From: Candidatus Bipolaricaulota bacterium
GTDB lineage: Bacteria > Bipolaricaulota > Bipolaricaulia > UBA7950 > UBA9294
Assembly: GCA_028277345.1 (NCBI GenBank)
Contig: JANQGM010000023.1
Coordinates: 7,895-71,894 of the forward strand
Direction: 5' to 3'
DNA length: 64,000 nt
Shown: positions 62 to 23,747 of the stretch, in pieces
Layout: the number at the start of each line of letters is the position of its first letter
How positions within the stretch are numbered: position 1 is the stretch's first letter
Program-made: the position numbers and the translations under genes
Notes under the pieces: generated by a model
Seen by the model: the letters and a program-made list of their open reading frames with translations, nothing else
Database searches by the model: none
What the model was told of the DNA's origin: nothing

Positions 62-203
62 ACGACACCTCCGGATGATTCTGGATCGATCGAGCGCGTG
101 CTCACTGTGAAGTATAGCAGAGACTCCAGGAGAAATGCGGGTTTACCAGGGGACCTTCGCGCCGCCCGCATCGGCGCGTTCATCGGGTACGCTTGAGTGA
201 GAG

Positions 204-1792: not shown

Positions 1793-1945
1793 CCTGCCTC
1801 CTTTCCCCCGAACACTGTCACAAGTGTAGGGAAGAAAGGCAAGGGTGTGAAGATCTAGCAACAGGCGTCACATTGCCACTTTGCGTGCGCAATTGGACAG
1901 AATCATGTACGATTCGCAAATCACAGATCCGGGTGGAGCAACTGA

Positions 1946-2320: not shown

Positions 2321-2336
2321 GCTCTCCCAAAGAATA

Positions 2337-2365
2337 AGGAGGGGCCGCAGCCCCTTCCTCTTGCT
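2337..2365. terminator. GC-rich hairpin between convergent genes (putative bidirectional terminator)
   Basis: aaggaggggc-cgca-gccccttcct forms a ~8-bp stem (one G:T pair) followed by tcttgctt. It lies between the stops at 2320 (+) and 2385 (-). Confidence 0.4.
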
Positions 2366-2384
2366 TCCCAACGTGGTTCGCAGT

Positions 2385-5339: not shown

Positions 5340-5516
5340 GAGAAGCCTCCTTCGAGATCGAACACATGGGAGGAGAAGAACCCCCGTCGCCCCTCTCAAA
5401 GCGGCAATTCATGCAAGATCGCCGCTCCCGATGACTGTAGGGGCAACGCCAACGCGAAGTCAAGGGATTTGCTGCATGATCGCATAGAGTATGATGAGCC
5501 TCGAATGGGAGGACGC

Positions 5517-11071: not shown

Positions 11072-12448
11072 ATGAAAATCACGTTTGGTGGTGCGGCAGA
11101 AACCGTCACAGGCTCATGCCATCTGGTCGAAGTTGATGGACTCCGGGTGGTATTGGATTGCGGGTTCTTTCAAGGTGGACGCAAGCGTGAGGACCTGAAT
11201 CGAGAGCCGTTTCCCTTTGATCCCAAGAGCGTGGATGCTGTTCTGCTCTCACATGCCCATCTCGACCATTGCGGACGTCTGCCGCTCTTGGTCGATCGCG
11301 GCTTCTCTGGTCCCATCTATTGCACGCCGCCGACCGCCGACATCTCGAAACTGATCCTGGCCGATTCCGCCAGCCTGCAAATGAGCGAAGCCGCCTACAA
11401 GGCACGCAAGGCCGAGCGATTGGGACGCGAACCCGAGCCGCCCTTGTACGATATGGATGACGTCATGCGCACCGTTCGCCTGTTCCAGCCGGTCTCCGGC
11501 TACAACGCGCCGGTTCAACTCAATGACAAGGTCACCGCCGTCTTCCACGATGCCGGTCACATCCTCGGATCGGCCGCGATTGAGCTGCGTACCTCCAATG
11601 GAACCCTGTTGTTCAGTGGGGATCTCGGCAATCGCGATCAGCCGATCGTGGAAGACCCATGCACGCCGCCCAAGGCCGATGTGTTGCTTATCGAGTCCAC
11701 CTACGGAGATCGTGCGCACAAGAGTATGGAGGACACGTTGGCCGAGCTTCGCGAAGCCATTCACACCGTCATCCCCAATGGCGGGAACCTGATGATCCCC
11801 TCCTTTGCGCTGGAACGCACCCAAGAGGTGCTCTACGAGATCTTCAAGCTGTGGGAAGCCAAGGATCTGCCTCGGTGCCGCATCTTCCTCGACAGCCCAC
11901 TGGCCATCAGCACGACCAAGGTGTTCGCGCGCTATCGCGACTACTACGACGCCGAAGCACGTGCCGTCTTTGATGGCGAGCCCAATCCCTTCAGCTTCAC
12001 GCCGCTTCGGTTTACGCAGTCGACCGAGGAATCCAAAGCCATCAACCGCGCCGGGCGAGGCAACATCATCATCGCGGGAAGTGGCATGTGTACGGGCGGA
12101 CGCATCATCCACCACTTGCGCCATAACTTGTGGCACGACAAGTCCGGCATCCTGTTCGTCGGCTACCAAGCGGTGGGAACGCGGGGGCGGCACATCGTCG
12201 ATGGGGCAGAGTCAATCAAGATCTGGGGGGAAGAGATTGCCGTCAAGGCCCAGATGTGGACGACCAATGGTTTCTCGTCTCACGCCGATCAACCCATCCT
12301 GCTCGATTGGATTCGTCGTGCCGATCCCGAGCATCTCGTGCTCATCCATGGGGAAGACGAGATCCTCGACACGTTTGCGTCCAAGATCAAGGCCGATCTG
12401 TCGAAGGAATCGCACGTCGCGAAACTGGGTGAGACGATTGTCGTGTAG
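11072..12448 (+). CDS. MBL-fold beta-CASP ribonuclease (RNase J / CPSF-like)
   Basis: 458 aa. MKITFGGAAETVTGSCHLVE...VLDCGFFQG, the HxHxDH motif (SHAHLDHCG), and the beta-CASP and C-terminal motifs (GFSSHAD, VLIHGE). GAGGAG RBS. Confidence 0.85.
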   Translation: MKITFGGAAETVTGSCHLVEVDGLRVVLDCGFFQGGRKREDLNREPFPFDPKSVDAVLLSHAHLDHCGRLPLLVDRGFSGPIYCTPPTADISKLILADSASLQMSEAAYKARKAERLGREPEPPLYDMDDVMRTVRLFQPVSGYNAPVQLNDKVTAVFHDAGHILGSAAIELRTSNGTLLFSGDLGNRDQPIVEDPCTPPKADVLLIESTYGDRAHKSMEDTLAELREAIHTVIPNGGNLMIPSFALERTQEVLYEIFKLWEAKDLPRCRIFLDSPLAISTTKVFARYRDYYDAEARAVFDGEPNPFSFTPLRFTQSTEESKAINRAGRGNIIIAGSGMCTGGRIIHHLRHNLWHDKSGILFVGYQAVGTRGRHIVDGAESIKIWGEEIAVKAQMWTTNGFSSHADQPILLDWIRRADPEHLVLIHGEDEILDTFASKIKADLSKESHVAKLGETIVV

Positions 12449-12640
12449 CTCCACGCCGGGCCACCACAAGCCTACCTCTATGACTAGCTGAACGAAGGTA
12501 ATACCGCCGATTCTTCCACTCCCTGGATTGGTCACTCGATCGAATAGATCGTCAATGAGCGTGAGAAAACGCATCCCACAAGAAGATCATCCCCGCGTTT
12601 CTCAAACATCGGCTGCGGATGACTGTTCACGTTTTGAGGA

Positions 12641-13072
12641 TTAACGAGTCACCAACCACGCACCTAATGCGACGATTATGGTTCCAGCCACTCTTGAGAA
12701 GTCGAGGGTGCGCACCTCCAGCCCGAGAACGCCCAATCGATCAAAAACAACACCGACAATCAGCTGAGCGGCAATGCTCAAGACAAGTGTAGCTGTGATG
12801 CCGATTCGTGGAATGGCGAAGGCCAACGTCGCCATCACGCCCATGCCGAGTGGCCCCGCTAGCAGCATAGTCCAGGGCAATGTCCTCCATGCTGGAGCAA
12901 TCGGCATCCCGCGTGCAACGATGATCAGCGCCACGACAACGAGTCCAGTGACGTTGACCAATAGCACACTCCACAGCAACCCCAATTTCTCTGCCACAAG
13001 TGCCGTCAAAGGCATCTGGATGGCAATTCCTGTACCCGCACACAACACGGCAAACGCAATCATTGCTGACAT
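12641..13072 (-). CDS. DMT-superfamily membrane protein, DUF606/YdcZ-like
   Basis: Start MSAMIAFAVL behind GGAGG (7-nt spacer). ~143 aa with 4-5 TM helices. The C-terminal pattern QLIVGVVFDRLGVLG...R..G..IV.LGAWL is typical of DUF606. Confidence 0.65.
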   Translation of the reverse strand: MSAMIAFAVLCAGTGIAIQMPLTALVAEKLGLLWSVLLVNVTGLVVVALIIVARGMPIAPAWRTLPWTMLLAGPLGMGVMATLAFAIPRIGITATLVLSIAAQLIVGVVFDRLGVLGLEVRTLDFSRVAGTIIVALGAWLVTR

Positions 13073-13244
13073 AGTCAACCTCCGGATTGTGTGAGCCGAA
13101 CCGTGTGTGAACTGCAACGGAACCGGGTCCTACCCTGTAGTGGATGAGTCCACTACTCTCTCACATAGATGGAATCAGTATGGTACTGGATAGTCGGCTG
13201 TGTCAAAGCCCAAGACAACTATTCGTGCTTTCCGAAGTAGAGCG

Positions 13245-13523
13245 TTAGGGTGTGACGCCGCCGAGCTCGTTGGCTTCGTTCTCAGGCCAGCGGTTGAAAT
13301 AGTCGTCGGCGTAGGCTGGAACGACCAAAGAGATCGTCGCCTGAATGAAAGACGTTGCCCCTTCCAAGAGCAGATAGAAGGGGCCCCGGCGATAGCCCTG
13401 TAACGTGTGGCCGTATTCGTGACGTAGGATGTTCTCCGTCACTAACGAGGGATGAAGAAAGATGTACTGCCCGAGCGATACGCCGATCGGCGCACGCGTG
13501 ACAATCACCGTCACCTCATTCAT
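13245..13523 (-). CDS. Small HExxH (zincin-like) protein
   Basis: 92 aa with GAGGA RBS 9 nt upstream. Contains ILRHEYGHTLQ, an HExxH...Q arrangement reminiscent of DUF4157-type zincins. Short and unverified. Confidence 0.35.
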   Translation of the reverse strand: MNEVTVIVTRAPIGVSLGQYIFLHPSLVTENILRHEYGHTLQGYRRGPFYLLLEGATSFIQATISLVVPAYADDYFNRWPENEANELGGVTP

Positions 13524-13536
13524 CTGGGCTGTGTCC

Positions 13537-13794
13537 TCAAACCGTCCCCATCAATTGCAGCAGGCCATAGAGCAGCGTGCCCAGCACGTTCTGAGGCAGA
13601 CAGAAGGTCGCTTGGGCGAGGCGGCGACGAACCAGCGTGTCCTCGGAAAGAGGTTCTATGCGCCCGGCCATTTCCTCAATAGACGTCGGGACATTCGCAG
13701 GAGGATCGGCACAAACGAGGAGCCCCGCGAAGCTGATGCCCAGGCATACCAGCCCGCAGATCAAGAATGCGTGGCACAAGCTTTTCGGGTTCAT
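13537..13794 (-). CDS. Possible small membrane protein upstream of the HExxH gene
   Basis: Internal ATG (13794) of the 134-aa ORF gives MNPKSLCHAFLICGLVCLGISFAGLLVCA.... It ends 13 nt before the next start. The longer version would overlap the aldolase gene start, so it is trimmed. Weak evidence. Confidence 0.2.
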   Translation of the reverse strand: MNPKSLCHAFLICGLVCLGISFAGLLVCADPPANVPTSIEEMAGRIEPLSEDTLVRRRLAQATFCLPQNVLGTLLYGLLQLMGTV

Positions 13795-13870
13795 GCCACA
13801 GCATAGCGAAAAGGGGACTTCCCTCGCTGACGCAGTCCACTGGGAGCACGAGAAGCCTTTGGAGGAACTT

Positions 13871-14635
13871 ATGTCGCAATCCAGCTTGAAGGAACGCCTG
13901 CAACGCGGAGAGCCGGTGATCGGGTCCATCGTCAGTGCCAATGCACCGGATTCCGCCGAGGTGATGGCACTCGTTGGATTTGACTACTTGTGGATCGAAG
14001 GCGAGCACTCGCCAATGGGGTTCGGTGATATCCAAACGTTGATTCAAGCCATCGGAGGACGTTGTCCGGCCATCGTCAGGATTCCTGAGAATGCCGATGT
14101 CTGGTTCAAGAAGGCCCTGGATACGGGTTGCGACGGCTTGGTCGTGCCTCAAGTCAACTCCGCAGATGACGCGCGCCGTGCCGTGGCTAGTGCCTTCTAT
14201 CCGCCGATGGGAACTCGTAGCGTGGGAATCACGCGAGCGCAAGGGTACGGAACAGCGTTCAACGACTATGTGGAGACCATCAACGACCGCCTGCTCCTTG
14301 TCCTCCAAATCGAGCACGTGCGTGGGGTCGAGAACGTCGACGAGATCGTCAACGTCCCCGGCATTGGCGCCCTTCTTGTCGGACCCTTTGATCTTAGCGG
14401 GAGTTTAGGGCTGCTTGGCCAAACGACGCATCCGGAGGTTGAGGCACGAATCGAAACCGTCCGCATCGCTTGTGAGAAGGCGGACATTCCCCTTGGTATC
14501 TTCGCCGTCGATGCCCCAACAGCCAAGCGCTACATCGAGCGAGGATTCCGGCTGATTTGCCTTGCCGCTGACACGACGTTCATGTATCGAGGGGCATCCG
14601 AAGCCCTTGCTGAAGTCCGAGGAGGAGGGCAATGA
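13871..14635 (+). CDS. HpcH/HpaI family aldolase
   Basis: ATG at 13871 behind GGAGGA. LKERLQRGEPVIGSIV...DYLWIEGEHSPMG...IVRIPEN...GCDGLVVPQVNSADDA...LQIEHV follows the HpcH/HpaI TIM-barrel aldolase pattern. ORF-track start 13637 is an extension. Confidence 0.8.
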   Translation: MSQSSLKERLQRGEPVIGSIVSANAPDSAEVMALVGFDYLWIEGEHSPMGFGDIQTLIQAIGGRCPAIVRIPENADVWFKKALDTGCDGLVVPQVNSADDARRAVASAFYPPMGTRSVGITRAQGYGTAFNDYVETINDRLLLVLQIEHVRGVENVDEIVNVPGIGALLVGPFDLSGSLGLLGQTTHPEVEARIETVRIACEKADIPLGIFAVDAPTAKRYIERGFRLICLAADTTFMYRGASEALAEVRGGGQ

Positions 14636-15201
14636 GTACAGAGACGAAGATCCTCGCCGTCGTTGGCAGTCCCCGCATTGGCGGGAACACGGATGTCCTC
14701 GTCGACGAAGTGTTGGCAGGCGCTGAAGAGAAGGGAGCGGTCACTGAGAAGATCTACCTCGGACGTTCGACCATCGGGCCATGTCATGCCTGCGATGCTT
14801 GTGAGGGCACGGGCGTATGCTTCCAGCGCGATGACATGGACCACATCCTGCAGCGCATGGAAGACAGCGACATCTGGGTACTGGGAACGCCCGTCTACTG
14901 GTGGGGCGCAACCGCTCAATTCAAGCTCTTCCTCGACCGGTGGTATGGCCCGTGGCATGACAACGAACCCAAGAAGGCCTTCCAGAACAAGAAGATCGCC
15001 CTCGTCATCACCATGGGCGACACTGACGCATCGACTGCTGATCCGACGCTCAACATGTTCGTGCGCTCGTTTGACTACATCGGACTTGAGCTTGCCGCCA
15101 CCCTTCTCGCACCTGGGGTCTACGGTTTTGGGGATGCGGAAGCATCAAATGAAATCATGAGGAACGCAAGAGATGCTGGTCAATTGCTCGCTTGCAGCTG
15201 A
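14632..15201 (+). CDS. Flavodoxin-like FMN reductase / iron-sulfur flavoprotein family (paralogue of 758-1324)
   Basis: 189 aa. KILAVVGSPRIGGNTDVLV, CHACDACEGTGVC, LGTPVYWWG. ATGA overlap with the aldolase stop. Confidence 0.75.
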   Translation: MSTETKILAVVGSPRIGGNTDVLVDEVLAGAEEKGAVTEKIYLGRSTIGPCHACDACEGTGVCFQRDDMDHILQRMEDSDIWVLGTPVYWWGATAQFKLFLDRWYGPWHDNEPKKAFQNKKIALVITMGDTDASTADPTLNMFVRSFDYIGLELAATLLAPGVYGFGDAEASNEIMRNARDAGQLLACS

Positions 15202-15396
15202 ATTGTTGCCTTCCAGATCATCTCCCACTTGCATCGCTGGATAGAGGGTGACGTGTGCCCGATTATGATATGATGCAATCATGGATCAATCTAGCGCCCC
15301 ATAGAACAGCAAACCCAGGGAGTTTCAAAGCAAATCGATCGCTGTGCGAGCAATGTGCCGTCGAACAGCCCATTCTTCAAACTATGGATTTCTCCT

Positions 15397-15579
15397 CTAG
15401 TCGGGCGATGAGTATCCAGTGAGAGTCCAAGTGAATTGAGTATTGTGTCCCCGGAATTCCTGAGCTTTGGTCAGTAGATTCGAAAGGAGTTCTTCTGCTT
15501 GCGGAGCGTTGCCAACGCAATTCTGGCATTTGATCGGATTAATCCTCAATCGCCATTCGGAACCTTCTTCATACCCCAA
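15397..15579 (-). CDS. 60-aa ORF downstream of the ATPase gene, possibly a remnant or small third component
   Basis: Starts 28 nt after the ATPase stop, on the same strand, within the low-GC patch. Contains a single CQNC. No RBS or family recognised. Confidence 0.2.
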   Translation of the reverse strand: MGYEEGSEWRLRINPIKCQNCVGNAPQAEELLSNLLTKAQEFRGHNTQFTWTLTGYSSPD

Positions 15580-15606
15580 CCTAATCTTTGCGTCGAACCC
15601 TTAGAC

Positions 15607-18600
15607 TCAACGTGGCAGTTCGATCGACCGAAACGCCTCTCCCAAGAAGTCGAATTTCCTTCGGAATAAGCTTGACAGCTTGGGATCCGCAGTTGCGAGA
15701 AAAACCTGCTTGTCAGAGTTTCTTACAATCAGTCGAAGAACATCGAAAAACGCCAATGCATTTAGGTCATCGAAGTACATCAATGGCTCATCAAGCAAGA
15801 TGTATGGTGGAGCAGTAGTTACACAGCTATTCATTGCGAGAAACAGTGAAAGCGCCAGTGCTGCTCTCTGCCCCGCACTAAGGCGTGTGATCGGAAGCAG
15901 ACTTCCTTGCTCTCTGGGGACGGCCACTAGTCCGGATTTTCTCAACTTGATTCCGCTGAAATCCCTTGGCCAGCAAAGAATGGAGAATAACTCGTCAAGC
16001 AGCTCAAGGCTGGACTCCAAATACATCCCAACAATCTTTGTCCCGCTGCTTGCCCCCTCAATTATTGATTGAAGAACCTCCTGCCAAGACTCAATAGACT
16101 CGCAGATTCTTTTCTCTTCTCTTGCCTTTTCGTGCGCTGTGTCCGCTTGGCGTTCTAGTCGTCGAACTAACAGGCTGGCTGCTTTCGATGAATCGCTATC
16201 TCTTCTGTATGCACTAATTCGAGCTGCGATCTTTCTCAGCAGTTCGAGGGAATCGCCCACGGTTTGTCTCCCCGCGTCACCAGCGATTTCAAGAAGCCCA
16301 TTACCAAGGTCAGCGATTTCCGCCAATTTGTCCTCAATGTGAGAGATTCGCTTCTTGACGTCCATCTCTCCGAACGGAATTCTGGCTTTCTGAAGGATCT
16401 CCTTAACCTCGGAGTTGATGTTCGAGATTCTCAACTCGGTTGATTCAATATCACTTTCTACTTGAACGAGACTGAGTTGGGTCTCTTGAAACTGCGAATC
16501 GTATTTCACGAGGTGCTCTGAGCCCACCTTCAGTTTCGGATAGCGCTTGGTTATCTCGTCTTCTAGTTCAGCTAGCCTGACTTCAGTTAGACCTCTCGAT
16601 TCCAGATCAGTGCGAACTGATTTCAGTTCCAGCAGCGTGTTCTCATAACGTGTAAGAGCAGAGCGAAATGCCCGAAACCTCCTGTTGAGATCACGGATTC
16701 CAAGATCGTCAACAAACACATCTGGAAGCAGGCGTTTGGCAGCAACCTGGGCAGTTTGAAGAATGTGCAATCGGCGCTGTATTTGGTCAATCTGTTTCAG
16801 GTGCTCCGCTCTATCAAGCTCAAGATCAGCCAAAGAGGAGGCCAAGGCATCATCAGTCCGAAGATCCATAACTCGACGTTCAAGTTCGTCCCGTTGATAA
16901 GAGTGATTACACAACGGACATTCTTTTCTATCCGGTTGGATATTCAGTATTTCTGTTCCCGAGGAGATCAGCTCCTCGAGCAATCTCGTGATCTCCCCTG
17001 CTTTGTTGCGCAATCGCTCAAGCTTCTCAGATCTCCGCTGCTGTGCTGCACTCTCTCTGCGCAGTTCACTACGAGTGTCAGCAATCAGTTTGCCAATGGC
17101 CTCTTGCCCCGCAATTGCATTTGCAAAGCCTATCTCGTCTACATCCTTCAGCGAGGATGAGATATGTTGAATTTGCTCCGAAACGCTTTCTATTTGCTGA
17201 GACAGCCCGATTAGCTCGCCTCCATTGGGAGCAGACATGTACTTCCTGAGTTCCTCCAGCGTTTCGAGCGATTGCTGCAAGATTGCTGCATCTGTGCGAT
17301 CCTTCTTCAACTTCGATTCCAGTTTTCCTAGCTCTATATCCCTGATTTCTACATGTGAAGCGATCTGCCTAAACTCCCCCCGTTCTTCATCAACCTCACG
17401 GAGTGGAATATCGAGAAGCCACGGATTTGCAGAGCCAACCAACTCAATGCGATCTATCAGAGTTGGGATCTTAGTTTCCAACTCTTGTATTCCCTCCTGA
17501 GTCTCCAACCACTCGGCATTGATCTTGAGGCTTTTGAGTTCATTTCGGAGATTAGGGAAGAGGGAACTTTCAAACCCAGTGGCTTCATCTCTTGCTTGTG
17601 TCAAACTCGATCGAATCCGAGCGCGCTCATGAGAATACTGCTCCAGAAGCCGTTCGTGAGATCGTAGCCTCTCTGCTAATCGACTTCCAATGCCTCTTGC
17701 CCGCTCTAGGATGATAGCAGCCTCACGACCAAGCACGAGACCTTCCAATGCCCGACCGATTTCATCTCGCCCAGTGCTTTTGGCCAGCCTTGTCGCTGCA
17801 TCTGTGTCAAAAAAGTTGAATCTCCCAAAGGCTTCGTGAAGTCTATTGGTTCTGGATTTGTGAATCCCATACCAAGAGAGTGCCCGGGAACGGTACTCAG
17901 CGGGCTTGAGAGATCGATTCCATCTATATCTCCTAGCTCCCGCAAATCTTAATCCAATCTGCCTTATCGCCTCAGGATCCTTTGGGTTTCGATAGGTCTT
18001 CCCGCACGTCCAAAGCTCAATGGCCTCGAGCAGCGATGTTTTGCCTGCTCCATTTCGGCCAGCAATCAGATTTACTTGTCCGAAATCAAACACCTTGTTT
18101 TGAAGACAGGGCCTGTATTTCCGAAGAGACATGGATCGAATGCTATGAACTGAGTTCTTCGGGGCAATCTGAATGGGAGATCCCGAAGAAGGATTCACAC
18201 CTTTAATCGGGCTCCCTTCCATGAGTCGACCAACAACTTTGTCCATCGCCTCCGATTCGATATATACGCCATCAAGATCTGCATTGTGCAATCGTTGGAT
18301 CCAATCACCAATCAGATCTGGAGGGGCAATGGACAAAGAGGATCTCAGCTTGTCGAATCTCCTCGGAAGCTCTGAGAACACCTCAGATTCAGCAACCACA
18401 AGCTTTCTTGCGTATGTCAGATCCTCTTCAAGTTCAGTAGCGAAGCCAGAGGTTCGAATTGCACGACACTGCTCTTCTGGATAAACGAGAACCAAATAGA
18501 GATTCCACTTCAGCGCACCTGGAGAAGAGTAATACTCTTCGCTAAGTGTAGTATCCTGGTATTCCTTAAACTTCTCTTGCGATGTAATGGATGACGCATC

Positions 18601-18750
18601 AGATTCGATAAAAAGCTTTCCGGCCAGTCCATTGGAGAAAAACGGGGCAGACACTAGATGGTCATTCACCAGTTTGGGAGACGATGCAAAAGATGATACG
18701 ACTTGCAGAATTCTGCTCGTTCTAGAAGTCATGTTCTCGATTGATTGCAT
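15607..18750 (-). CDS. Rad50/SMC-like ABC ATPase with central CxxC hook motif and an uncharacterised N-terminal module
   Basis: Maximal ORF 15607-18768 (1053 aa). The best RBS (GAGGA, 5-nt spacer) favours ATG 18750; other in-frame ATGs are at 18768 and 18732. Walker A GRNGAGKT (18037-18060) appears only at aa 237. About 700 aa of charged, heptad-like sequence follow, with CPLC (16909-16920, aa 617-620) near the midpoint. LSAGQR signature (15865-15882), Walker B YILLDEP (15784-15804). Confidence 0.85.
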   Translation of the reverse strand: MQSIENMTSRTSRILQVVSSFASSPKLVNDHLVSAPFFSNGLAGKLFIESDASSITSQEKFKEYQDTTLSEEYYSSPGALKWNLYLVLVYPEEQCRAIRTSGFATELEEDLTYARKLVVAESEVFSELPRRFDKLRSSLSIAPPDLIGDWIQRLHNADLDGVYIESEAMDKVVGRLMEGSPIKGVNPSSGSPIQIAPKNSVHSIRSMSLRKYRPCLQNKVFDFGQVNLIAGRNGAGKTSLLEAIELWTCGKTYRNPKDPEAIRQIGLRFAGARRYRWNRSLKPAEYRSRALSWYGIHKSRTNRLHEAFGRFNFFDTDAATRLAKSTGRDEIGRALEGLVLGREAAIILERARGIGSRLAERLRSHERLLEQYSHERARIRSSLTQARDEATGFESSLFPNLRNELKSLKINAEWLETQEGIQELETKIPTLIDRIELVGSANPWLLDIPLREVDEERGEFRQIASHVEIRDIELGKLESKLKKDRTDAAILQQSLETLEELRKYMSAPNGGELIGLSQQIESVSEQIQHISSSLKDVDEIGFANAIAGQEAIGKLIADTRSELRRESAAQQRRSEKLERLRNKAGEITRLLEELISSGTEILNIQPDRKECPLCNHSYQRDELERRVMDLRTDDALASSLADLELDRAEHLKQIDQIQRRLHILQTAQVAAKRLLPDVFVDDLGIRDLNRRFRAFRSALTRYENTLLELKSVRTDLESRGLTEVRLAELEDEITKRYPKLKVGSEHLVKYDSQFQETQLSLVQVESDIESTELRISNINSEVKEILQKARIPFGEMDVKKRISHIEDKLAEIADLGNGLLEIAGDAGRQTVGDSLELLRKIAARISAYRRDSDSSKAASLLVRRLERQADTAHEKAREEKRICESIESWQEVLQSIIEGASSGTKIVGMYLESSLELLDELFSILCWPRDFSGIKLRKSGLVAVPREQGSLLPITRLSAGQRAALALSLFLAMNSCVTTAPPYILLDEPLMYFDDLNALAFFDVLRLIVRNSDKQVFLATADPKLSSLFRRKFDFLGEAFRSIELPR

Positions 18751-20494
18751 CCCTGTCCTCGCTTCCATCTGTGATTATTGGTTCCACATGATCCGTGATC
18801 GGTAGATTCCCTTCCGGGGTTGCATGCCAGATTACAAGTCGCTTTTCATCATCAATCGCTTTCTTGGCCAGTGCGAAGTGCCTTTGGGCCTGTGTATCGC
18901 TCTTGTGACCTATGAATGCGACTGTTGCTCCAGTCTCCCTAACAGGATCGTATACGTTCTGTCTAATCTTCCGCTGGGCACTAGACATCCGCCGCAGACC
19001 TTTACCCGCCAAGTCTCTTATACAGATTGGGAGATCCTCGACAGGGCCCGTCAGAATTGTCTGCAATGCATCGAATCTCGCGTAGGTATCCGTCCTGAAC
19101 ACCTCGGAATCCTCATGAGGGTCTTGAGCAACTGCGAGTCGGAATGATATCCTTCTTCTATCTGAACGCATTGACCTCAAATTCTCCACTTTATCCCAAT
19201 CTGTTGTTGTGAGAGCAGCAAGGCAACCACTAGACAGCAGCAAGAGCCTCTCTCTGTCTACAACAGACATACTCTCAAGCAACGAAAGATCAAAGCTATG
19301 GCCATCCCTCAAGCACATATCAACATATCCATCGTCAGCTTTGTTTGCCTCAGTCCAGGTTGTGGTTGCCCTATCCCAAGAGTAGAGAACGGGTCTGAAC
19401 GGCCCGGTTCTACCATTCCCCTGCGCAGGTCCTCGTGATCCCTTTTGCGACGGTTTGTGCTGTTGCACCATGAAGACATGCTCATTGTAATTGAGGGAAT
19501 ACATATGGGCACTTGGCTCATAACAGCGTATGTAGTACAACCCCTTGTCATGCAAGGCTTGTATATGTAGATCACTGGTATCCGCGCTTGGCGCTCGAGT
19601 CAGGATAGTCGATCCCCCGTAGGGCGATCGAGATTTATCATGTGCAAAAACGAAATCCCTCGCCCAGTTAACCGAGAGGAATTCAACATGCACTGCGTCA
19701 TGATCATACAAATGACTGCGGAATGAGATAAAGCTAGTATGAGTCGGAGCAACGCATAGCTGGAGATGAACCACGAGCCACGGAGTGTGATAATCGGTTG
19801 ACCACGCCTCGTTTTTGAGATCTCCCAAGCTGTCTGAACAGATTAGCGGCACAAGCTTAATGGTGTTTTGATCTTTGGGATTGCGAAAGATAAACCGTGT
19901 GCTTCCCAATATCAGATTGTCAGGCTCAAATCGGTATTCCTTGTCAGCCATTTCCTGGCCTTTGAACTGAACAACAACCACGATTCGCATCTGTCCGCTC
20001 TTGTCCTTCAAAGAGAAGACACAACACACAGGGTCCAGGTATCCTTTCTGGTTTTCCGGGGTGTCCAACGTTTCGTCATATATCCAAACTATTTCAGGAT
20101 GTGATTCGATCAGGCTCTTGAGCGAATCTGGACGGATGCCTTCGCACCCCATGAGCCAAAGCGTTCCTTGTTTCGGAGCGTTGCCCCTCCGCAGCAGACG
20201 ATCGACAACTTCCCACGGGCACGAATACTCCGGAATGACCGCCAAGTCTGGATTCTCTTGCAGTGCAAGCTCGAGAAAGCTCTCATGTTTCTTTGGCGCC
20301 AATCGCCTATTTAAGTTGCGGACCACGTTGCTGACTTCGATCGGTCCTTGAGGCTGAAGTATCAGCGTTTTGTATCGAGCAGTGTTTGGTTTCAGAAACG
20401 GAAAGCCGGGTTGCGTAAATCCCTTCTGCGACAAGCGCTCGTCAACATACACGCATTCCACGCAACCACTCCTAATTACATGAAACGAAGTCAT
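18722..20494 (-). CDS. 590-aa protein: N-terminal nitrilase/CN-hydrolase-like domain (inferred) plus an unknown C-terminal domain
   Basis: Motif order matches the CN-hydrolase fold: TLILQPQG (first strand), DLAVIPEY (Glu, aa 89), VVVVQFKGQEMADKEY (Lys 178 or 185), KLVPLICSDSLGD (Cys 219, nt 19838-19840). The C-terminal ~280 aa has no motif I recognise. Its stop lies inside the ATPase gene. Confidence 0.75.
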   Translation of the reverse strand: MTSFHVIRSGCVECVYVDERLSQKGFTQPGFPFLKPNTARYKTLILQPQGPIEVSNVVRNLNRRLAPKKHESFLELALQENPDLAVIPEYSCPWEVVDRLLRRGNAPKQGTLWLMGCEGIRPDSLKSLIESHPEIVWIYDETLDTPENQKGYLDPVCCVFSLKDKSGQMRIVVVVQFKGQEMADKEYRFEPDNLILGSTRFIFRNPKDQNTIKLVPLICSDSLGDLKNEAWSTDYHTPWLVVHLQLCVAPTHTSFISFRSHLYDHDAVHVEFLSVNWARDFVFAHDKSRSPYGGSTILTRAPSADTSDLHIQALHDKGLYYIRCYEPSAHMYSLNYNEHVFMVQQHKPSQKGSRGPAQGNGRTGPFRPVLYSWDRATTTWTEANKADDGYVDMCLRDGHSFDLSLLESMSVVDRERLLLLSSGCLAALTTTDWDKVENLRSMRSDRRRISFRLAVAQDPHEDSEVFRTDTYARFDALQTILTGPVEDLPICIRDLAGKGLRRMSSAQRKIRQNVYDPVRETGATVAFIGHKSDTQAQRHFALAKKAIDDEKRLVIWHATPEGNLPITDHVEPIITDGSEDRDAINREHDF

Positions 20495-20505
20495 CCATCT
20501 GGAAG

Positions 20506-20534
20506 ACTATACAAATCTAGCTTATCCAGCGCAA
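20506..20534 (-). promoter_or_regulatory. Putative promoter of the low-GC two-gene cassette (TTGCGC-17-TATAGT)
   Basis: Read on the minus strand: -35 at 20534-20529, 17-nt spacer, -10 at 20511-20506, which is 11 nt upstream of ATG 20494. This implies a very short leader. Confidence 0.4.
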
Positions 20535-20537
20535 CAC

Positions 20538-20565
20538 TTGACACTCTTTGGCGTACTAGTATACT
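20538..20565 (+). promoter_or_regulatory. Near-consensus sigma70 promoter (TTGACA-16-TATACT) facing the ytrA-type operon
   Basis: -35 at 20538-20543 and -10 at 20560-20565. Back-to-back with the minus-strand promoter (3 nt between the two -35 boxes). The spacer contains ACTAGT/GTATAC palindromic elements. Confidence 0.45.
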
Positions 20566-20573
20566 AACACACT

Positions 20574-20792
20574 ATGACGACATGGAAGATGGAAACGACC
20601 CCGGCTGACCACGCCGGCATTCACCATACAGAAGACAAATCAGCACATCGCGAGCAGGTGCTCGGTGCCCCCGCCATCAGCCTGCTCGCGGCCCTCCCGC
20701 TCACAGGCCTTGGGCGACGGATGCGGATGAAGGAGATGACTCATGACGGACATCGGACGGAAACACCCGTGATGAAGGTGGTGTCACCATGA
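20574..20792 (+). CDS. Possible leaderless 72-aa upstream ORF coupled to the GntR gene
   Basis: ATG 8 nt after the -10 box. Stop TGA overlaps the GntR ATG (ATGA at 20789-20792). The sequence has no recognisable family, so it could equally be a 5' UTR. Confidence 0.25.
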   Translation: MTTWKMETTPADHAGIHHTEDKSAHREQVLGAPAISLLAALPLTGLGRRMRMKEMTHDGHRTETPVMKVVSP

Positions 20793-21166
20793 CAGAACAC
20801 GATGGATGGAGCCTCGATATGAGCAGTGGCCCAATCTTCGAGCAAATCGCGAAGAACGTGCACCAGATGTTGGCTCGCGGTGCGCTGACGCCGGGAGACA
20901 AACTCCCATCAGCCCGTGAATTGGCGGCCAGGCTGTCGGTGAACCCAAACACGATCGTGCACGCCTACGGACAACTGGAAGCGGACGGCGTCATCGAAAA
21001 GCGGCGCGGTCTGGGAACGTTCGTACGAGAAGACGCTCCTGTGACAGGAATGAAACACGAAATGCTGCATGGCGCCGCCTCGGCGTATGCAGAAGAGAGC
21101 AGACAGTTAGATGCCTCCATTCAGGAAGCCATCGCTGCGCTGAAGGAGGTTTGGGATGCTGGCTAA
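20789..21166 (+). CDS. GntR family transcriptional regulator, YtrA subfamily
   Basis: 125 aa. PIFEQIAKNVHQMLARGALTPGDKLPSARELAARLSVNPNTIVHAYGQLEADGVIEKRRGLGTFV is the GntR wHTH. The short C-terminus is typical of YtrA. ABC transporter genes follow. Confidence 0.85.
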   Translation: MTEHDGWSLDMSSGPIFEQIAKNVHQMLARGALTPGDKLPSARELAARLSVNPNTIVHAYGQLEADGVIEKRRGLGTFVREDAPVTGMKHEMLHGAASAYAEESRQLDASIQEAIAALKEVWDAG

Positions 21167-21836
21167 GCTTGACCATGTAACCAAACGCTATGTAAAGAAT
21201 GAAGGCTTGCGAGACCTCACGCTCGACTTTCCCGCTGGGCAAGTCGTGGGCGTACTCGGTCTCAATGGGAGTGGCAAGTCCACGATGTTGAAGCTGCTGG
21301 CGGGACTGCTGTTCCCAACGTCAGGACACGTTTCGGTGTTCGACGGCCAGCCGCGATCCAAGCGATCGAACATCGTGTTCCTCGGCGAGCGCGATGCGCT
21401 GTGGCCGTGGATGAAGCCAACGGATGCTGAGCGCTTCATGGGCAACCTGTACGCGGATTTCGATCGGACCCGATTCAACGAGCTGCTGGATGCCCTGGAA
21501 GTGCCACGTCGAAAGACGAAGACGATGTCCAAGGGCGAACGCGGACGGCTGCGGCTGGCGATGGCGCTGGCGCGCGATGCCAAGCTCTATCTGTTGGACG
21601 AGCCGTTGGGCGGCATCGATTTGATCAGCCGAGAGAAGATTCTCTCCTCGATCGTACAGGAGTGGCATACGGATGAGACGATCCTGTTGTCCACGCACGA
21701 AGTGGCGGAAGCCGAGGGCCTGTTCGAACGCGTCGTCTATCTGCGCGACGGCAAGCTGGCGCTCGATGTGTCGGCGGAATCGCTCCGTGAAGGCGGCAAG
21801 TCCGTTGTCGATACGTTCCGGGAGGTGCTCACATGA
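21156..21836 (+). CDS. ABC transporter ATP-binding protein
   Basis: Walker A GLNGSGKST, signature MSKGERGRL, Walker B LYLLDEP, H-loop STHEV. 11-nt overlap with the GntR gene. Confidence 0.9.
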   Translation: MLAKLDHVTKRYVKNEGLRDLTLDFPAGQVVGVLGLNGSGKSTMLKLLAGLLFPTSGHVSVFDGQPRSKRSNIVFLGERDALWPWMKPTDAERFMGNLYADFDRTRFNELLDALEVPRRKTKTMSKGERGRLRLAMALARDAKLYLLDEPLGGIDLISREKILSSIVQEWHTDETILLSTHEVAEAEGLFERVVYLRDGKLALDVSAESLREGGKSVVDTFREVLT

Positions 21837-22624
21837 AACGCTTTATGACGCTCGTCTGGCTTGAGCATCGCCGCAATTGGATGTGGTCGCTGCCTTTGCT
21901 CGGTTCGCTGTTGTTCTGGGCCTGGGGCATCAAGCAAGTGCTGATCATGGACGTGGCCGAACGTCTGGCCATCCGATCGGGATTGCTGCTCGCCGCCGCC
22001 GTCATCGGCGCCGTCGTGCTGGCCATTATGGTCGGCCGCATCCGTTCGGAAACGCGCAACGGACAGTATCAGGTCCTGTTGATGACGCCGCCGTCCGGCT
22101 ATGCGCACATCGGCGCGCGCTTTGCGTACGCCGCAGCGATTGGATTCGCCTATTACATCGCCATTGGATTCATGTTCTGGTGGATCCTGGAGCTTGCTGG
22201 TTTGCATTTGGACGCGAGGAGCCTGTTCGATCTGATCCTGTTCACACCGTTCTACGCGCTGAACATTACGGTTCTGCCGATGCTGGCGTACGTGCTGTTG
22301 CTGATGGTATTCATCAGTGCCTTCCGGATTTCCGGCTCGGGCTGGATTCCGGGATTGACGATGCTGCTTGCCTCACCATTTGCCTACAGCTGGTTGGGCG
22401 AGGGGATCGTCAAGGTGGCCTACACACTGCCGGGATGGAAGCTGTTCGTGAATGCGCCGGCCGCCATCATCGAGCGGTTCGGACAGATCGATCCCGAGAT
22501 TGGCACTGAGATCAATACCGCCATTTATGCCGGCGCGCCCATTGAACCGCTACTGATCATGATCGGACTCACGATCGTGTTGCTGGTTGTGACCGGCCGA
22601 ATCTGGCAGGAGGTGGAAGCATGA
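21833..22624 (+). CDS. Multi-pass membrane protein, probable ABC-2-type permease partner
   Basis: 263 aa with about 6 TM helices. ATGA overlap with the ATPase gene. No specific family recognised. Confidence 0.6.
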   Translation: MKRFMTLVWLEHRRNWMWSLPLLGSLLFWAWGIKQVLIMDVAERLAIRSGLLLAAAVIGAVVLAIMVGRIRSETRNGQYQVLLMTPPSGYAHIGARFAYAAAIGFAYYIAIGFMFWWILELAGLHLDARSLFDLILFTPFYALNITVLPMLAYVLLLMVFISAFRISGSGWIPGLTMLLASPFAYSWLGEGIVKVAYTLPGWKLFVNAPAAIIERFGQIDPEIGTEINTAIYAGAPIEPLLIMIGLTIVLLVVTGRIWQEVEA

Positions 22625-22785
22625 CACAGGTATTCCTGTTTGTATTGCGCGCCCTATTTGTCGCGCTGTTTCTGTTCTGGGGCTACCGCCTCTGGAAAGG
22701 CACGCGAAGCTGGACATCGCGCGTACTGGGCGTGATGTTCACCCTCATGCTGATTTGGCAAACGACACTCGGAACGTGGGAATGA
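22621..22785 (+). CDS. 54-aa two-helix membrane peptide (below the ORF-track cutoff)
   Basis: ATG 22621 overlaps the permease stop (ATGA). Hand translation: MTQVFLFVLRALFVALFLFWGYRLWKGTRSWTSRVLGVMFTLMLIWQTTLGTWE, stop at 22783-22785. Confidence 0.4.
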   Translation: MTQVFLFVLRALFVALFLFWGYRLWKGTRSWTSRVLGVMFTLMLIWQTTLGTWE

Positions 22786-22832
22786 TGCGCAACGAGAACC
22801 CTTTGAATAGACAAAAGAATCACGGAGGATCC

Positions 22833-23747
22833 ATGAAGGCACAAAAGAACCTAAGAGTTATTGCGGTTGTCGCGCTAAGCGCCGTGGTGGTGTTCGCGCT
22901 GTTCGGTTGCGATATTGAGGAAGTGATCGACGGCGCTATTGGCAACATCGAAGCGGTGCGCGAGGAGACGGCTTTCTTTGAATTGACGGGATTGGCGGAT
23001 TTGGACGTTGACACGTCAAACGGCTACGTCATCGTCGAATCGCACGAGGCCGAGAACGTGCTCGTGACCGCCAAGCTGCGTTCGCGCGGCAACTCCCTTG
23101 AAGAGGCGGAAGAGCGGGTCAACGCGATCGTCATTCACATGAACCAAGTGGGAAACAACATCGAGCTCATTTATCGCGGATCGGAGCAATCGTCGGAGGT
23201 GCGCCGCTCTTCGGGCGTGTCGTTCGAGGTTGCGGTCCCTGTTCAAGCCGACGTTGAAGTCGATACATCCAATGGCGAGATCACGGTTCGCGGCATCGAA
23301 GGCGAGTTCAACCTCGATACCTCAAACGGCGCCGTCACCTTGTCGGACTTGGTCGGTGTGCTCAACGTCGATACCTCGAACGGGCGAATCGATGTTCGCG
23401 GATTCAATGGCGTACTCGATATCGAAACGAGCAACGGTGCCATTGACATCTCCGAATCCTCGGCCTCGATCAGCGCACGGACGAGCAATGGGCGCATCGA
23501 TTTCTCGGGCGAACTGGTCGGTGATTCGCACTCCCTGCGAACGAGCAATGGCGCCATCACGGCTCGCGTGCAGCTCGATGCCTCCGTGACCATTGATGCG
23601 TCGACCAGCATTGGCAGCATTAGCTCGAATCTCGCTTTGACCGGCGATACGGAAGGCCGCGACTGGAATGCTGTCCTCAACGCACCGGCAACGCAGACGT
23701 TGAAGCTGCGAACGAGCAACGGGAGCATTCGCATTGAAGGCATTTAG
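22833..23747 (+). CDS. DUF4097-type (YvlB/LiaG-like) lipoprotein with repeated DTSNG beta-helix units
   Basis: ATG 22833 behind GGAGGA gives MKAQKNLRVIAVVALSAVVVFALFGC (lipobox). At least 7 repeats of [DE]TSNG-x-[IV] spaced ~19-20 aa apart. Confidence 0.75.
   Translation: MKAQKNLRVIAVVALSAVVVFALFGCDIEEVIDGAIGNIEAVREETAFFELTGLADLDVDTSNGYVIVESHEAENVLVTAKLRSRGNSLEEAEERVNAIVIHMNQVGNNIELIYRGSEQSSEVRRSSGVSFEVAVPVQADVEVDTSNGEITVRGIEGEFNLDTSNGAVTLSDLVGVLNVDTSNGRIDVRGFNGVLDIETSNGAIDISESSASISARTSNGRIDFSGELVGDSHSLRTSNGAITARVQLDASVTIDASTSIGSISSNLALTGDTEGRDWNAVLNAPATQTLKLRTSNGSIRIEGI

Follow-up and report, generated by a model that had tools for sequence, protein, structure and literature searches.

A Candidate Two-gene Lamassu/ABC-3C System with a Predicted Nitrilase-fold Effector in a Bipolaricaulota Genome

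Results

A Low-GC Patch Contains Two Overlapping Genes

The window, the whole 64,000-nt stretch of Candidatus Bipolaricaulota DNA that was analysed, contains a patch whose composition is foreign to its surroundings (Table 1). The GC content of the patch is 48.6%, compared with 58.1% in the remainder of the window, and no 5.37-kb segment of the 64 kb is lower; the minimum, at 15201, lies 3.5 standard deviations under the mean. The GC3 values of gene A (0.52) and gene B (0.48) are also displaced relative to those of neighbouring and housekeeping genes (0.63-0.78). A low-GC insertion had been proposed here from hand counts of GC; the counts were reproduced exactly (46.7%, 40.0%, and 63.3%), and the departure of both windowed GC and GC3 from the flanks upholds the proposal. 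As also claimed, signs of mobility are lacking: the window has no tRNA, Rfam RNA, or flanking repeats, and the flanking genes scanned include no integrase and no transposase. The cassette stands alone amid metabolic and housekeeping genes, with no recognisable defence island around it in the window, and identical copies occur in assemblies from two other sequencing runs.

The two overlapping minus-strand ORFs are as described by the sequence-only reading, but their starts required correction. For gene A the most likely start is GTG 20461, which has AGGAG upstream, gives the 579-residue product of the public annotation, and fits the N termini of the homologues. Gene B has in-frame ATGs at 18768, 18750, and 18732, of which ATG 18750 is the most likely start, being preceded by GAGGA and giving a 1047-residue protein that matches P0169. 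Gene A ends with a TAG (18724-18722) inside gene B, and the overlap would then be 29 nt. Ahead of gene A, the sequence TTGCGC-17-TATAGT is present and is a plausible promoter of the cassette; to call it the cassette's own promoter was an overstatement, with three of six consensus positions matched in the -35 element and a score under the threshold of the promoter scanner. Promoter-like sites are as numerous in this region as expected by chance. Downstream of gene B, the tail of the patch has no ORF of >60 aa, no Rfam match, and no terminator-like site, and its RNA structure is not unusual (z +1.07).

Table 1. Coordinates of the cassette and its features in the window
Feature	Position	Strand	Basis
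Low-GC (48.6%) compositionally foreign patch with cassette	15202..20570		GC and GC3 computation
Non-coding tail of patch, 405 nt, downstream of gene B	15202..15606	-	ORF, RNA-structure, Rfam, and terminator scans
Gene B, MComp1-LmuB fusion; longest ORF 1053 aa	15607..18768	-	ORF and profile searches
Walker B of gene B, YILLDEP	15784..15804	-	D in 51/51 members
ABC signature of gene B, LSAGQ	15868..15882	-	S and Q in 51/51 members
CPLC zinc-hook motif of gene B, mid coiled coil, C617/C620	16909..16920	-	C, P, C invariant (n=38)
Walker A of gene B, GRNGAGKT (K243)	18037..18060	-	G, K, T invariant (alignment A6)
N-terminal ~215-aa module of gene B, ABC-3C Middle Component 1 (probable LmuC equivalent)	18124..18768	-	PF20289 MComp1
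Gene A, LmuA-like effector (predicted); longest ORF 590 aa	18722..20494	-	ORF search
C-terminal domain of gene A, aa ~386-590, presumed docking/oligomerisation	18725..19339	-	Conservation, model, LmuA analogy
Nitrilase-superfamily (C-N hydrolase) fold domain of gene A, aa ~12-385 (predicted)	19340..20461	-	AlphaFold and Foldseek
C219 codon of gene A, predicted nucleophile, LICSD motif	19838..19840	-	Invariance (n=137), model, codon checked
K178 codon of gene A, predicted catalytic Lys, VQFK motif	19961..19963	-	Invariance (n=137), model, codon checked
E89 codon of gene A, predicted catalytic Glu, PEYSCPW motif	20228..20230	-	Invariance (n=137), model, codon checked
Putative promoter TTGCGC-17-TATAGT, weak -35	20506..20534	-	Sequence present

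Gene B Resembles a LmuB ATPase with a Fused Middle Component

Profile searches support the assignment of gene B as an SMC/Rad50-like ABC ATPase of LmuB type. The PADLOC LmuB models matched it with E values of 2.9e-33, 2.9e-27, 2.5e-23, and 3.9e-17 (113, 94, 80, and 60 bits), and the remaining PADLOC ABC/AAA ATPase models (AriA, PtuA, JetC, DndD, and PbeC) gave ≤40 bits, mad3 at 61 bits being the sole further sizeable match. All matches to Rad50, SMC_N, and RecF fell under their cut-offs, and the NCBIfam Rad50 models scored 64-67 bits against family cut-offs of 700-1000 bits. In PDB sequence searches, the ATPase family matched archaeal Rad50 heads best (E 1e-13), and no chain named LmuB or DdmC appeared among the 60 of 78 PDB matches listed from a searched copy that may lack them.

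The cysteines and proline of the CPLC hook are invariant in 38 sequences, and each family member has one copy. Conservation also extends to Walker A, Walker B, and a signature of the form xSxGQ. The Walker B motif reads hhhhDE in the window copy compared with hhhhDD in the family, where the second residue is Asp in 49 of 51 members and Glu in two, including the window copy. At the N terminus, the Pfam MComp1 match (18337-18579; E 5e-8) scored 33.1 bits against a gathering cut-off of 27.3, and MComp1 was detected in 31 of 35 family members, which supports the module as an equivalent of LmuC; the PADLOC LmuC models did not match it. Without this module gene B amounts to ~830 aa with one CxxC. 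The sequence-only reading had anticipated this picture of a Rad50/SMC-class ATPase with a mid-coil CxxC, an extra module in place of LmuC, and a Lamassu/ABC-3C logic, and the profile matches and conserved motifs agree with it; the residues that it named (K243, C617/C620, and, in gene A, C219) are all present.

Gene A Is Predicted to Adopt a Nitrilase Fold

Gene A has no sequence match in Pfam, PADLOC, NCBIfam, or the PDB and no tie at the sequence level to any LmuA, Pfam ABC-3C CTD family, or Pfam CN_hydrolase, and hhalign against E. coli YafV returned no match. A search of 1.84e9 clusters yielded 728 representatives of its homologues, and RefSeq records of the gene A and gene B type carry generic annotation only. 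Because sequence-level matches are absent, the nitrilase assignment is one of predicted fold and motif order. The AlphaFold model (pLDDT 92.2) gave 55 Foldseek matches in the PDB at E≤1e-3, the best 50 of which are nitrilase, amidase, or NadE-glutaminase domains (best E 1.6e-7; TM(target) ≤0.59), and the closest structures are soluble small-molecule amidases or glutaminase domains. A faint likeness to Mre11/SbcD phosphoesterases was seen at E 0.1-0.3.

Among 137 sequences with 24-39% identity, Glu-89, Lys-178, and Cys-219 are invariant and Glu-190 nearly so. In the model, Glu-89 lies towards the C terminus of strand 84-92, Lys-178 immediately follows strand 169-177, and Cys-219 sits at the junction of strand 213-218 and helix 219-223, the "nucleophile elbow" position. 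Fold matches together with the order and secondary-structure context of the invariant residues support a nitrilase/CN-hydrolase fold for the N-terminal domain, as had been suggested from motif order. The secondary structure of the model shows no evident membrane segments. The C-terminal domain is kept across the family (alignment A4) and modelled with high confidence, and it matched nothing in the Pfam ABC-3C CTD families or PDB sequences; a docking or oligomerisation role is presumed from the architecture of LmuA.

The Gene Pair Is Conserved and Often Adjoins Defence Genes

Homologues of the two genes are found together nearly everywhere. An ATPase of 1015-1063 aa follows gene A at ~46 of the 58 genome loci and in all five metagenome contexts; its start typically overlaps the stop of gene A by 1-4 nt, its Walker A falls at residues 213-230, and its CxxC is close to residue 600. 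The pair occurs across many bacterial phyla and in archaea, its distribution is patchy and HGT-like, and family proteins share 83-87% identity across alpha-, beta-, and gamma-proteobacteria. Plasmid copies were seen beside Hachiman and beside an integrase. In a survey without a background control, the pair often adjoined Hachiman, Wadjet, Gabija, AbiE, or RM genes, with SoFic, GajA, JetC/JetD, IetA, AbiEi/Eii, PrrC, and RM genes as neighbours at other loci. We looked for a phage or viral-contig copy and found none. Breakage is visible at some homologous loci: L002/L003 have a split ATPase, and truncations or frameshifts affect genes of L015, L022, L053, and L058. RefSeq homologues carry the GO term "double-strand break repair."

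Discussion

The domain identities, conserved catalytic and ATPase motifs, operon conservation, foreign composition, and defence-island neighbourhoods observed here point to a horizontally acquired two-gene member of the Lamassu/ABC-3C abortive-infection defence systems, of the "long" LmuB type, in which an MComp1-LmuB fusion is paired with a nitrilase-fold LmuA effector, a reading to which we give a probability of roughly three in four.

In the terms of the Lamassu classification (PNAS 2025, PMC12663957), the cassette shares with long-type systems (LmuA-LmuC-LmuB) a ~800-aa SMC/Rad50-like LmuB core with one CxxC zinc hook, a Walker B that reads hhhhDD in the family, an effector combining a variable N-terminal enzymatic domain with a C-terminal domain, an effector gene that comes first and an ATPase gene that comes last, and a tie to defence loci. 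It differs in having two genes, with LmuC, a separate gene there, fused to the N terminus of LmuB; neither "fused" nor "fusion" occurs in that paper. The nitrilase fold is absent from its lists of effector domains, both long (Cap4, Mrr, protease, Sir2, and FMO) and short (HNH, SMEK, lipase, and others). Type I Lamassu (LmuA-LmuB, Bacillus) has the same two-gene layout, but its effector is a Cap4 nuclease and its two-gene state goes back to the loss of LmuC (clade S), whereas that of the cassette reflects the fusion of LmuC to LmuB. Type II DdmABC of V. cholerae and Salmonella LmuACB, in which an LmuB dimer and LmuC sequester a single LmuA via its C-terminal domain, presumably follow the same logic; they differ in their short LmuBs (~600-650 aa), Cap4 nuclease effector, separate LmuC (MC3), and Walker B ending in Q/S/T/E, and the V. 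cholerae LmuB is without a zinc hook.

ABC-3C systems (Krishnan, Burroughs, Iyer & Aravind 2020), compared here via Pfam MComp1 and the summary in PMC10586767, are built from the same components as the cassette, in which MComp1 is present: a 3C-ABC ATPase, a middle component, and an effector that docks through a C-terminal domain. The gene order of effector, MC, and ABC is also shared, but the C-terminal domain of gene A found no match among the Pfam ABC-3C CTD families. Gene A has no match in a named family, and the two proteins do not both match a named system over their full length. The cassette had been put forward as an undescribed or very divergent Lamassu-like system, and "very divergent" is the accurate half, because a 2023 review, citing Krishnan 2020 and Millman 2022, already names "C-N hydrolase" among Lamassu/ABC-3C effector domains. 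The class is thus not wholly undescribed, the mention in the literature being passing and computational.

With nitrilase enzymes (Nit2, AmiF formamidase, the NadE glutaminase domain, CPA, and CJ1056C), gene A shares the alpha-beta-beta-alpha four-layer fold (Foldseek E 1e-7 to 1e-4) and the order and spacing of Glu, Lys, and Cys, but identity is only 9-15%, and gene A carries ~200 additional residues as a C-terminal domain and lies in a context of defence rather than metabolism. DRT1 and the UG1 and UG5 RT-nitrilase systems are alike by description in using a nitrilase domain with an intact catalytic centre as an abortive-infection effector, which in DRT1 is inactive as a monomer and controlled by oligomeric state; their sensor is a reverse transcriptase making DNA adducts, fused in cis, whereas here an SMC-like ATPase would act in trans.

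Such distant enzymes are a weak guide to substrate, because the domain is too divergent for a Pfam or HHalign match, and a Lamassu-type system could instead use it for protein deamidation or cleavage, for Lnt-like acyl transfer or lipid attack, or to make a toxic product. Acyltransferases such as Lnt belong to the nitrilase superfamily, toxin generation was raised as a possibility by the DRT1 authors, and Lamassu has lipase effectors (PMC12663957). We nonetheless consider a departure from small-molecule amidase activity unlikely, since the best structural matches all come from soluble proteins, either amidases of small molecules or glutaminase domains, and the model lacks apparent membrane segments.

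More doubtful still is a reading in which the cassette plays no current defence role in this genome, being either a remnant that is decaying or non-functional or a selfish module of the addiction type. Its isolation in a window free of mobility genes, its weak promoter, the departure of its Walker B from the family consensus, and the visibly broken homologous loci would fit such a history, but both reading frames run uninterrupted through 579 and 1047 codons with all catalytic and ATPase motifs kept, identical copies exist in the assemblies from two other sequencing runs, and DE is the canonical, hydrolysis-competent Walker B. Least credible is a repair or maintenance machine of the Rad50-Mre11/SbcCD kind, with gene A as a diverged Mre11/SbcD replacement beside a Rad50 paralogue, which the Rad50 heads and scores, the GO term, and the faint phosphoesterase likeness would favour, but against which stand Rad50 scores far below family cut-offs, an MComp1 domain specific to ABC-3C, nitrilase matches some six orders of magnitude better than those to Mre11, invariant Glu/Lys/Cys in place of the His/Asp/Asn metal ligands of calcineurin-like phosphoesterases, and the patchy distribution, foreign composition, and defence-gene neighbours.

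For a Lamassu-type cassette with a nitrilase-fold effector, we infer complex formation, trigger, activation by oligomerisation, substrate, and defence phenotype by analogy. The gene B ATPase would presumably dimerise via its CPLC zinc hook, and in the uninfected cell the (MC-LmuB)2 dimer would hold one LmuA (gene A, with its Glu-89-Lys-178-(Glu-190)-Cys-219 centre) as an inactive monomer, the C-terminal domain of LmuA being buried between the coiled coils or heads. In solved Lamassu complexes, DNA-end sensing frees LmuA, which oligomerises and becomes active. Here, DNA ends or replication intermediates of phages or plasmids, with ATP-driven head engagement, may likewise release LmuA, and oligomerisation would complete its active site, because activity in the nitrilase superfamily is confined to dimers and higher oligomers; a need for oligomerisation is stated in abstracts on nitrilases. 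The active effector would then hydrolyse a C-N bond of an essential molecule, our best guess being a metabolite with an amide or amine group (for example NAD+, glutamine/asparagine, or a nucleotide), and the cell would arrest or die ahead of completion of the phage cycle.

Gene Layout and Composition of the Cassette

The cassette consists of two minus-strand genes, gene A, encoding a predicted LmuA-like effector, and gene B, encoding an SMC/Rad50-like ABC ATPase, which lie in a patch with a GC content of 48.6% compared with 58.1% in the remaining window. Sliding-window GC drops from 0.56-0.61 to 0.45-0.50 between ∼15.2 and 20.5 kb with sharp bounds, and no other 5.37-kb window in the 64 kb has so low a GC content as the patch, which lies 3.5 S.D. 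under the mean. The GC3 values of gene A (0.52) and gene B (0.48) are likewise below those of flanking and housekeeping genes (0.63-0.78). The sequence-only reading of this DNA had described such a low-GC patch, which the windowed GC and GC3 across the window bear out, and its three hand counts of GC were all reproduced exactly. The two overlapping ORFs that it placed there are present, with the TAG stop of gene A falling within gene B. From Shine-Dalgarno placement, homologue N termini, and public gene calls, the likely start of each gene lies inside its longest ORF (see the table); residue numbers for gene A follow its longest ORF.

The cassette had also been credited with a promoter of its own. 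A TTGCGC-17-TATAGT element is indeed present, but its −35 hexamer agrees at only 3/6 positions, and promoter-like sites in the patch region are no commoner than in shuffled sequence. Back-to-back with this much weaker minus-strand site is a near-consensus σ70-like site directed toward the neighboring GntR/ABC operon. Neither tRNA genes nor flanking direct repeats occur in the window, as had been claimed, and the same holds for Rfam RNAs; no terminator was found. The 405-nt tail downstream of gene B is without notable or structured RNA. It contains a short ORF, and the downstream neighbors vary among homologous loci.

Positions of the cassette and of other features discussed
Feature	Sequence	Position	Strand	Details
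Low-GC patch	window	15202-20570		
Gene A, longest ORF	window	18722-20494	-	590 aa
Gene A, likely start	window	20461	-	GTG, 579 aa
Gene B, longest ORF	window	15607-18768	-	1053 aa
Gene B, likely start	window	18750	-	ATG, 1047 aa, 29-nt overlap
Gene B, Walker B	window	15784-15804	-	LLDE
ORF in tail downstream of gene B	window	15397-15579	-	60 aa
σ70-like site	window	20538-20565	+	TTGACA-16-TATACT, 11/12
GntR/ABC ATPase/permease/DUF4097 operon	window	20789-23747		
AbiEi_2 protein	window	8588-9682	-	364 aa
ORF overlapping AbiEi_2 protein	window	7836-8609	-	257 aa
β-Helix/PKD/caspase protein	window	46344-50198	+	1284 aa
Large ORF	window	2385-5399	-	1004 aa
Gene A homologue without fused ATPase	L017 (Planctomycetaceae MAG)	152-5416		139-aa ORF and convergent 991-aa ORF follow
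Split ATPase	L002/L003	7758-10847		353 + 659 aa
Neighborhood of plasmid-borne gene pair	L068 (Polaromonas plasmid pPNAP01)	935-5196		
Neighborhood of plasmid-borne gene pair	L069 (Natronorubrum plasmid)	5027-6334, 11776-14804		

Predicted Nitrilase Fold of the Effector

Gene A matched nothing in Pfam, PADLOC v2, NCBIfam, or the PDB sequences, and its two halves likewise matched nothing in Pfam and PADLOC. PADLOC, its LmuA models included, gave no match to the whole protein or to either half at E≤10, a result that concerns detection by current tools and not architecture. Matches to DUF2590 and WYL (E 0.02-0.2) were rejected as noise, and both single-sequence and 13-sequence profile searches against PDB sequences returned nothing useful. 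Homologues are nevertheless numerous: a word-indexed search recovered 13 relatives and an exhaustive profile search 728 representatives of clusters at 50% identity, from many bacterial phyla and some archaea. Of these representatives, 418 reach E≤1e-30, and almost all are ∼575 aa long.

A first AlphaFold run with 13 sequences, in which the C-terminal half was poor (pLDDT 68.6), was replaced by a run with 137 sequences, 24-39% identical to the window protein, which gave a pLDDT of 92.2 and a pTM of 0.92. Foldseek searches of the PDB with this model yielded 55 matches at E≤1e-3, and the best 50 all belong to the nitrilase superfamily, with its four-layer αββα sandwich fold (E 1.6e-7 to 8e-4, TM(target) up to 0.59). 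They include the NadE glutaminase domain (1.6e-7) and AmiF formamidase (TM 0.59), along with CJ1056C, N-carbamoylputrescine amidohydrolase, Nit4, and D-carbamoylase. The weaker first model had pointed to the same superfamily, mouse Nit2 being its best match. Across the 137 sequences Pro-88, Glu-89, Lys-178, Cys-219, Gln-245, Asn-276, and Trp-277 are invariant, and Glu-190 is conserved in at least 90%. In the model Glu-89 lies near a strand end, Lys-178 right after a strand, and Cys-219 at a strand-helix junction; these positions fit the Glu-Lys-(Glu)-Cys active-site arrangement of the nitrilase superfamily. By its modeled structure, the N-terminal domain of gene A is a member of the nitrilase (C-N hydrolase) superfamily, an assignment that concerns fold and active site and does not extend to sequence, as there is no match in Pfam (including PF00795 CN_hydrolase, at E≤10), in PDB profile searches, or in an hhalign comparison of the family profile with Escherichia coli YafV (no similarity, probability 0.4%). 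The nitrilase/CN-hydrolase motif order first read from this protein by eye is in line with the fold matches and the invariant Glu-89, Lys-178, and Cys-219.

The remaining ∼200 aa (residues ∼386-590) form a conserved, confidently modeled C-terminal domain that matches no Pfam ABC-3C C-terminal domain family and no PDB sequence; Pfam searches with 48 sequences gave scattered chance matches. The gene A model also faintly resembles Mre11/SbcD-type metallophosphoesterases (Foldseek E 0.1-0.3 in the PDB and viral libraries), which probably reflects only the common four-layer sandwich architecture. An Mre11-like identity was rejected, as the Mre11 matches lie at E>0.1 and phosphoesterase motifs are absent.

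An LmuB-like ATPase Fused to a Middle Component

Pfam finds SMC_N, AAA_15, and AAA_23 in gene B around a Walker A motif at residues 237-244, and four PADLOC LmuB models match with E values from 2.9e-33 to 3.9e-17. Rival ABC/AAA models (AriA, PtuA, JetC, DndD, PbeC) reach 40 bits at most and mad3 61 bits. The NCBIfam Rad50, ASRP, and RecF models match far under their cut-offs (64-67 bits for Rad50 versus 700-1000). In PDB sequence searches Rad50 heads rank first, and none of the chains among the matches listed for the family bears the name LmuB or DdmC. When 51 family members are aligned, the Walker A motif, the xSxGQ signature, Walker B, and a single mid-coiled-coil CPLC prove to be conserved, the ATPase motifs being set apart by the long coiled coil and the CPLC found in every intact member. 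The protein had been described as a Rad50/SMC-class ATPase with a mid-coil CxxC, a description that the LmuB and SMC_N matches and the conserved CPLC uphold. Walker B reads hhhhDD in 49/51 members; in the window copy it is LLDE, and this ATPase may differ from its relatives in how it hydrolyzes ATP.

Ahead of the ATPase, which without it measures ∼830 aa, gene B carries an N-terminal module of ∼215 aa. Residues 64-144 match MComp1 (PF20289, "ABC-3C system Middle Component 1") with 33.1 bits against a curated cut-off of 27.3, and the same family is matched by the N-terminal 215 aa of 31/35 family ATPases, confirming the earlier suggestion of an extra module where LmuC would be expected. The middle component-LmuB fusion is thus a fixed feature of the family and not an assembly artifact of the window. 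The PADLOC LmuC models gave no match to this module; a word-indexed search with the module alone found no homologues, and one with its alignment found short fragments only.

Conservation of the Gene Pair and Its Probable Transfer

In 5/5 metagenome or MAG contexts, a gene for a 1029-1054-aa SMC-like protein, split in one case, comes immediately after the gene A homologue. We scanned the GTDB species representatives for gene A homologues and obtained 58 loci, in ∼46 of which the next gene encodes 1015-1063 aa. Most of these have an overlap of 1-4 nt between the stop of gene A and the start of the ATPase gene. The ATPases at these loci have Walker A at residue 213-230 and one CxxC near residue 600, and the order of effector, middle component, and ABC ATPase recurs in metagenome and plasmid loci. 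Hence, the adjacency of the two genes is a property of the family well beyond this window. Among the exceptions, a Planctomycetaceae MAG has other ORFs after its gene A homologue in place of the fused ATPase, and in L002/L003 the ATPase is split.

The 58 loci belong to Firmicutes, Bacteroidota, Verrucomicrobiota, Planctomycetota, Acidobacteriota, Actinobacteria, Campylobacterota, Nitrospirota, a candidate Melainabacteria genus (Obscuribacter), and α-, β-, γ-, and δ-proteobacteria, and the archaeal copies come from Hodarchaeota, Nitrosopumilus, and a Natronorubrum plasmid. Cassette ATPases of Pseudomonas, Paracoccaceae, and Hydrogenophaga genomes are 83-87% identical across α-, β-, and γ-proteobacteria. 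Such identity between classes indicates, as judged from sequence comparison, that the family ATPases have moved between them by recent horizontal transfer. Those of Acidovorax, Paracidovorax, and a Burkholderiaceae MAG are 98-99% identical to one another; the two comparisons draw on loci L032-L036, L040, and L043. No copy of the cassette was found in phage genomes or IMG/VR viral contigs, nor were there viral structural relatives.

Defense Genes around Homologous Loci and the Neighborhood in the Window

A Hachiman system (HamA and helicase) is found 3.9 kb away from the pair on Polaromonas plasmid pPNAP01, and the Natronorubrum plasmid has a site-specific integrase on one side of the pair and a PD-(D/E)XK nuclease with a helicase on the other. 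PADLOC applied to 212 neighboring ORFs of 49 loci detected SoFic, GajA, JetC/JetD, IetA, AbiEi/AbiEii, PrrC, type I/III restriction-modification subunits, and several PDC candidates, a survey that is qualitative because it has no background control. These neighbors lend indirect support to a putative role of the family in abortive infection against phages or plasmids.

In the window, the cassette is flanked by an HpcH aldolase and an FMN reductase on one side and by the GntR/ABC operon on the other, with AlaRS, DnaE, RtcB, and GlnRS farther off, and PADLOC applied to nine flanking or notable window proteins found no defense genes adjoining it in this genome. About 6 kb away, a protein with a Pfam AbiEi_2 antitoxin domain (E 4e-23) is overlapped by a second ORF on the same strand; PADLOC has no model that matches either, GC at 9-11 kb is down to 0.52-0.53, and the two may be a divergent AbiE-like pair. 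Elsewhere, a large protein combines a right-handed β-helix, three PKD domains, and a C-terminal caspase domain (Peptidase_C14; PADLOC "caspase" 6e-14), and a further large ORF is left unmatched by both Pfam and PADLOC at E≤1e-5.

Relation to Lamassu and ABC-3C Systems

Lamassu and ABC-3C systems have the same parts in the same order as the cassette: an effector with a C-terminal domain, a middle component, and an SMC-like ABC ATPase. "Long" Lamassu LmuB proteins are described as having one zinc hook, an hhhhDD motif, and ∼800 aa (PMC12663957), and the gene B family is alike in length without the module, in its single CPLC, and in its Walker B, apart from the DE of the window copy. The cassette differs in that the middle component is fused N-terminally to LmuB instead of being encoded by a separate gene. 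The same classification, the most recent systematic one, lists nine effector domains, nitrilase not among them, and mentions loss of LmuC but not its fusion (PMC12663957). With reference to Millman 2022 and Krishnan 2020, a 2023 review names "C-N hydrolase" as one of the effector domains located N-terminally in LmuA/ABC-3C proteins, so this effector class had already been noticed computationally. Of the original proposal of an undescribed or very divergent Lamassu-like system, the Lamassu-like part stands on LmuB, MComp1, and gene order, but "undescribed" does not, given that entry. Literature searches for "Lamassu-amidase" and variants returned no papers. DefenseFinder may have a "Lamassu-Amidase" subtype. 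The cassette is real, widespread, and mechanistically informative, and it lies inside a well established family rather than constituting a new category.

A Proposed Mechanism and Its Alternatives

In solved Lamassu complexes, one inactive LmuA monomer is held through its C-terminal domain by an LmuB dimer and LmuC, and sensing of DNA ends frees LmuA, which is active on oligomerizing. Nitrilase-superfamily enzymes are reported to need dimers or larger oligomers for activity, and DRT1 has in its nitrilase domain a validated abortive infection effector that is inactive as a monomer. Drawing on these three precedents, we propose that LmuA would be sequestered by the middle component-LmuB complex in the resting state and, once released, become active through oligomerization; by analogy we infer that the complex forms and that DNA ends trigger the release of LmuA, whereas domain identities, motifs, synteny, and genomic context are observed directly. 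The freed C-N hydrolase would then destroy an essential amide- or amine-bearing molecule, for which NAD+ (by deamidation), glutamine, asparagine, or a nucleotide are candidates, and cells carrying the cassette would thereby be defended. To the reading that nitrilase-fold LmuA has an effector chemistry not worked out for any system, in which the freed and oligomerized enzyme would cleave a metabolite C-N bond or make a toxic product, we tentatively assign a probability of about 0.4.

The nitrilase fold of gene A may instead serve some non-amidase chemistry, a reading that we hold to be less likely than the amidase one. A Rad50-Mre11-like repair machine would account for the Rad50 heads that lead the PDB searches and for the faint Mre11 likeness of gene A, but is unlikely given the MComp1 domain in gene B, Rad50 scores far under the NCBIfam cut-offs, invariant Glu, Lys, and Cys residues in gene A in place of phosphoesterase motifs, Mre11 fold matches a million-fold weaker than the nitrilase ones, and a patchy distribution. 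The cassette is also unlikely to be a dead remnant, as both ORFs and their motifs are intact.

Significance

Lamassu is among the most widespread of the SMC-based immune systems, and all mechanistic work on it has, to our knowledge, been done on short systems with nuclease effectors. The plasmid pairs carry the RefSeq names "hypothetical protein" and "AAA family ATPase", and with such generic names in the records inspected and no PADLOC v2 LmuA or LmuC match, the family may be under-counted in defense censuses. The cassette is informative in pairing a nitrilase effector fold, whose target is a question common to DRT1 (2026), with a natural LmuC-LmuB fusion that sits in a long, zinc-hook-bearing, Rad50-like LmuB. 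If functional, it would offer a simple two-gene model for whether "liberation and oligomerisation" extends to non-nuclease effectors and could help to find the nitrilase substrate. If the proposed mechanism is true, the LmuC-LmuB fusion would lock the middle component in position and in stoichiometry, which would help to clarify the role of LmuC, and a free-standing, trans-regulated LmuA could be the first tractable handle on the substrate common to the DRT1/UG5 RT-nitrilase systems.
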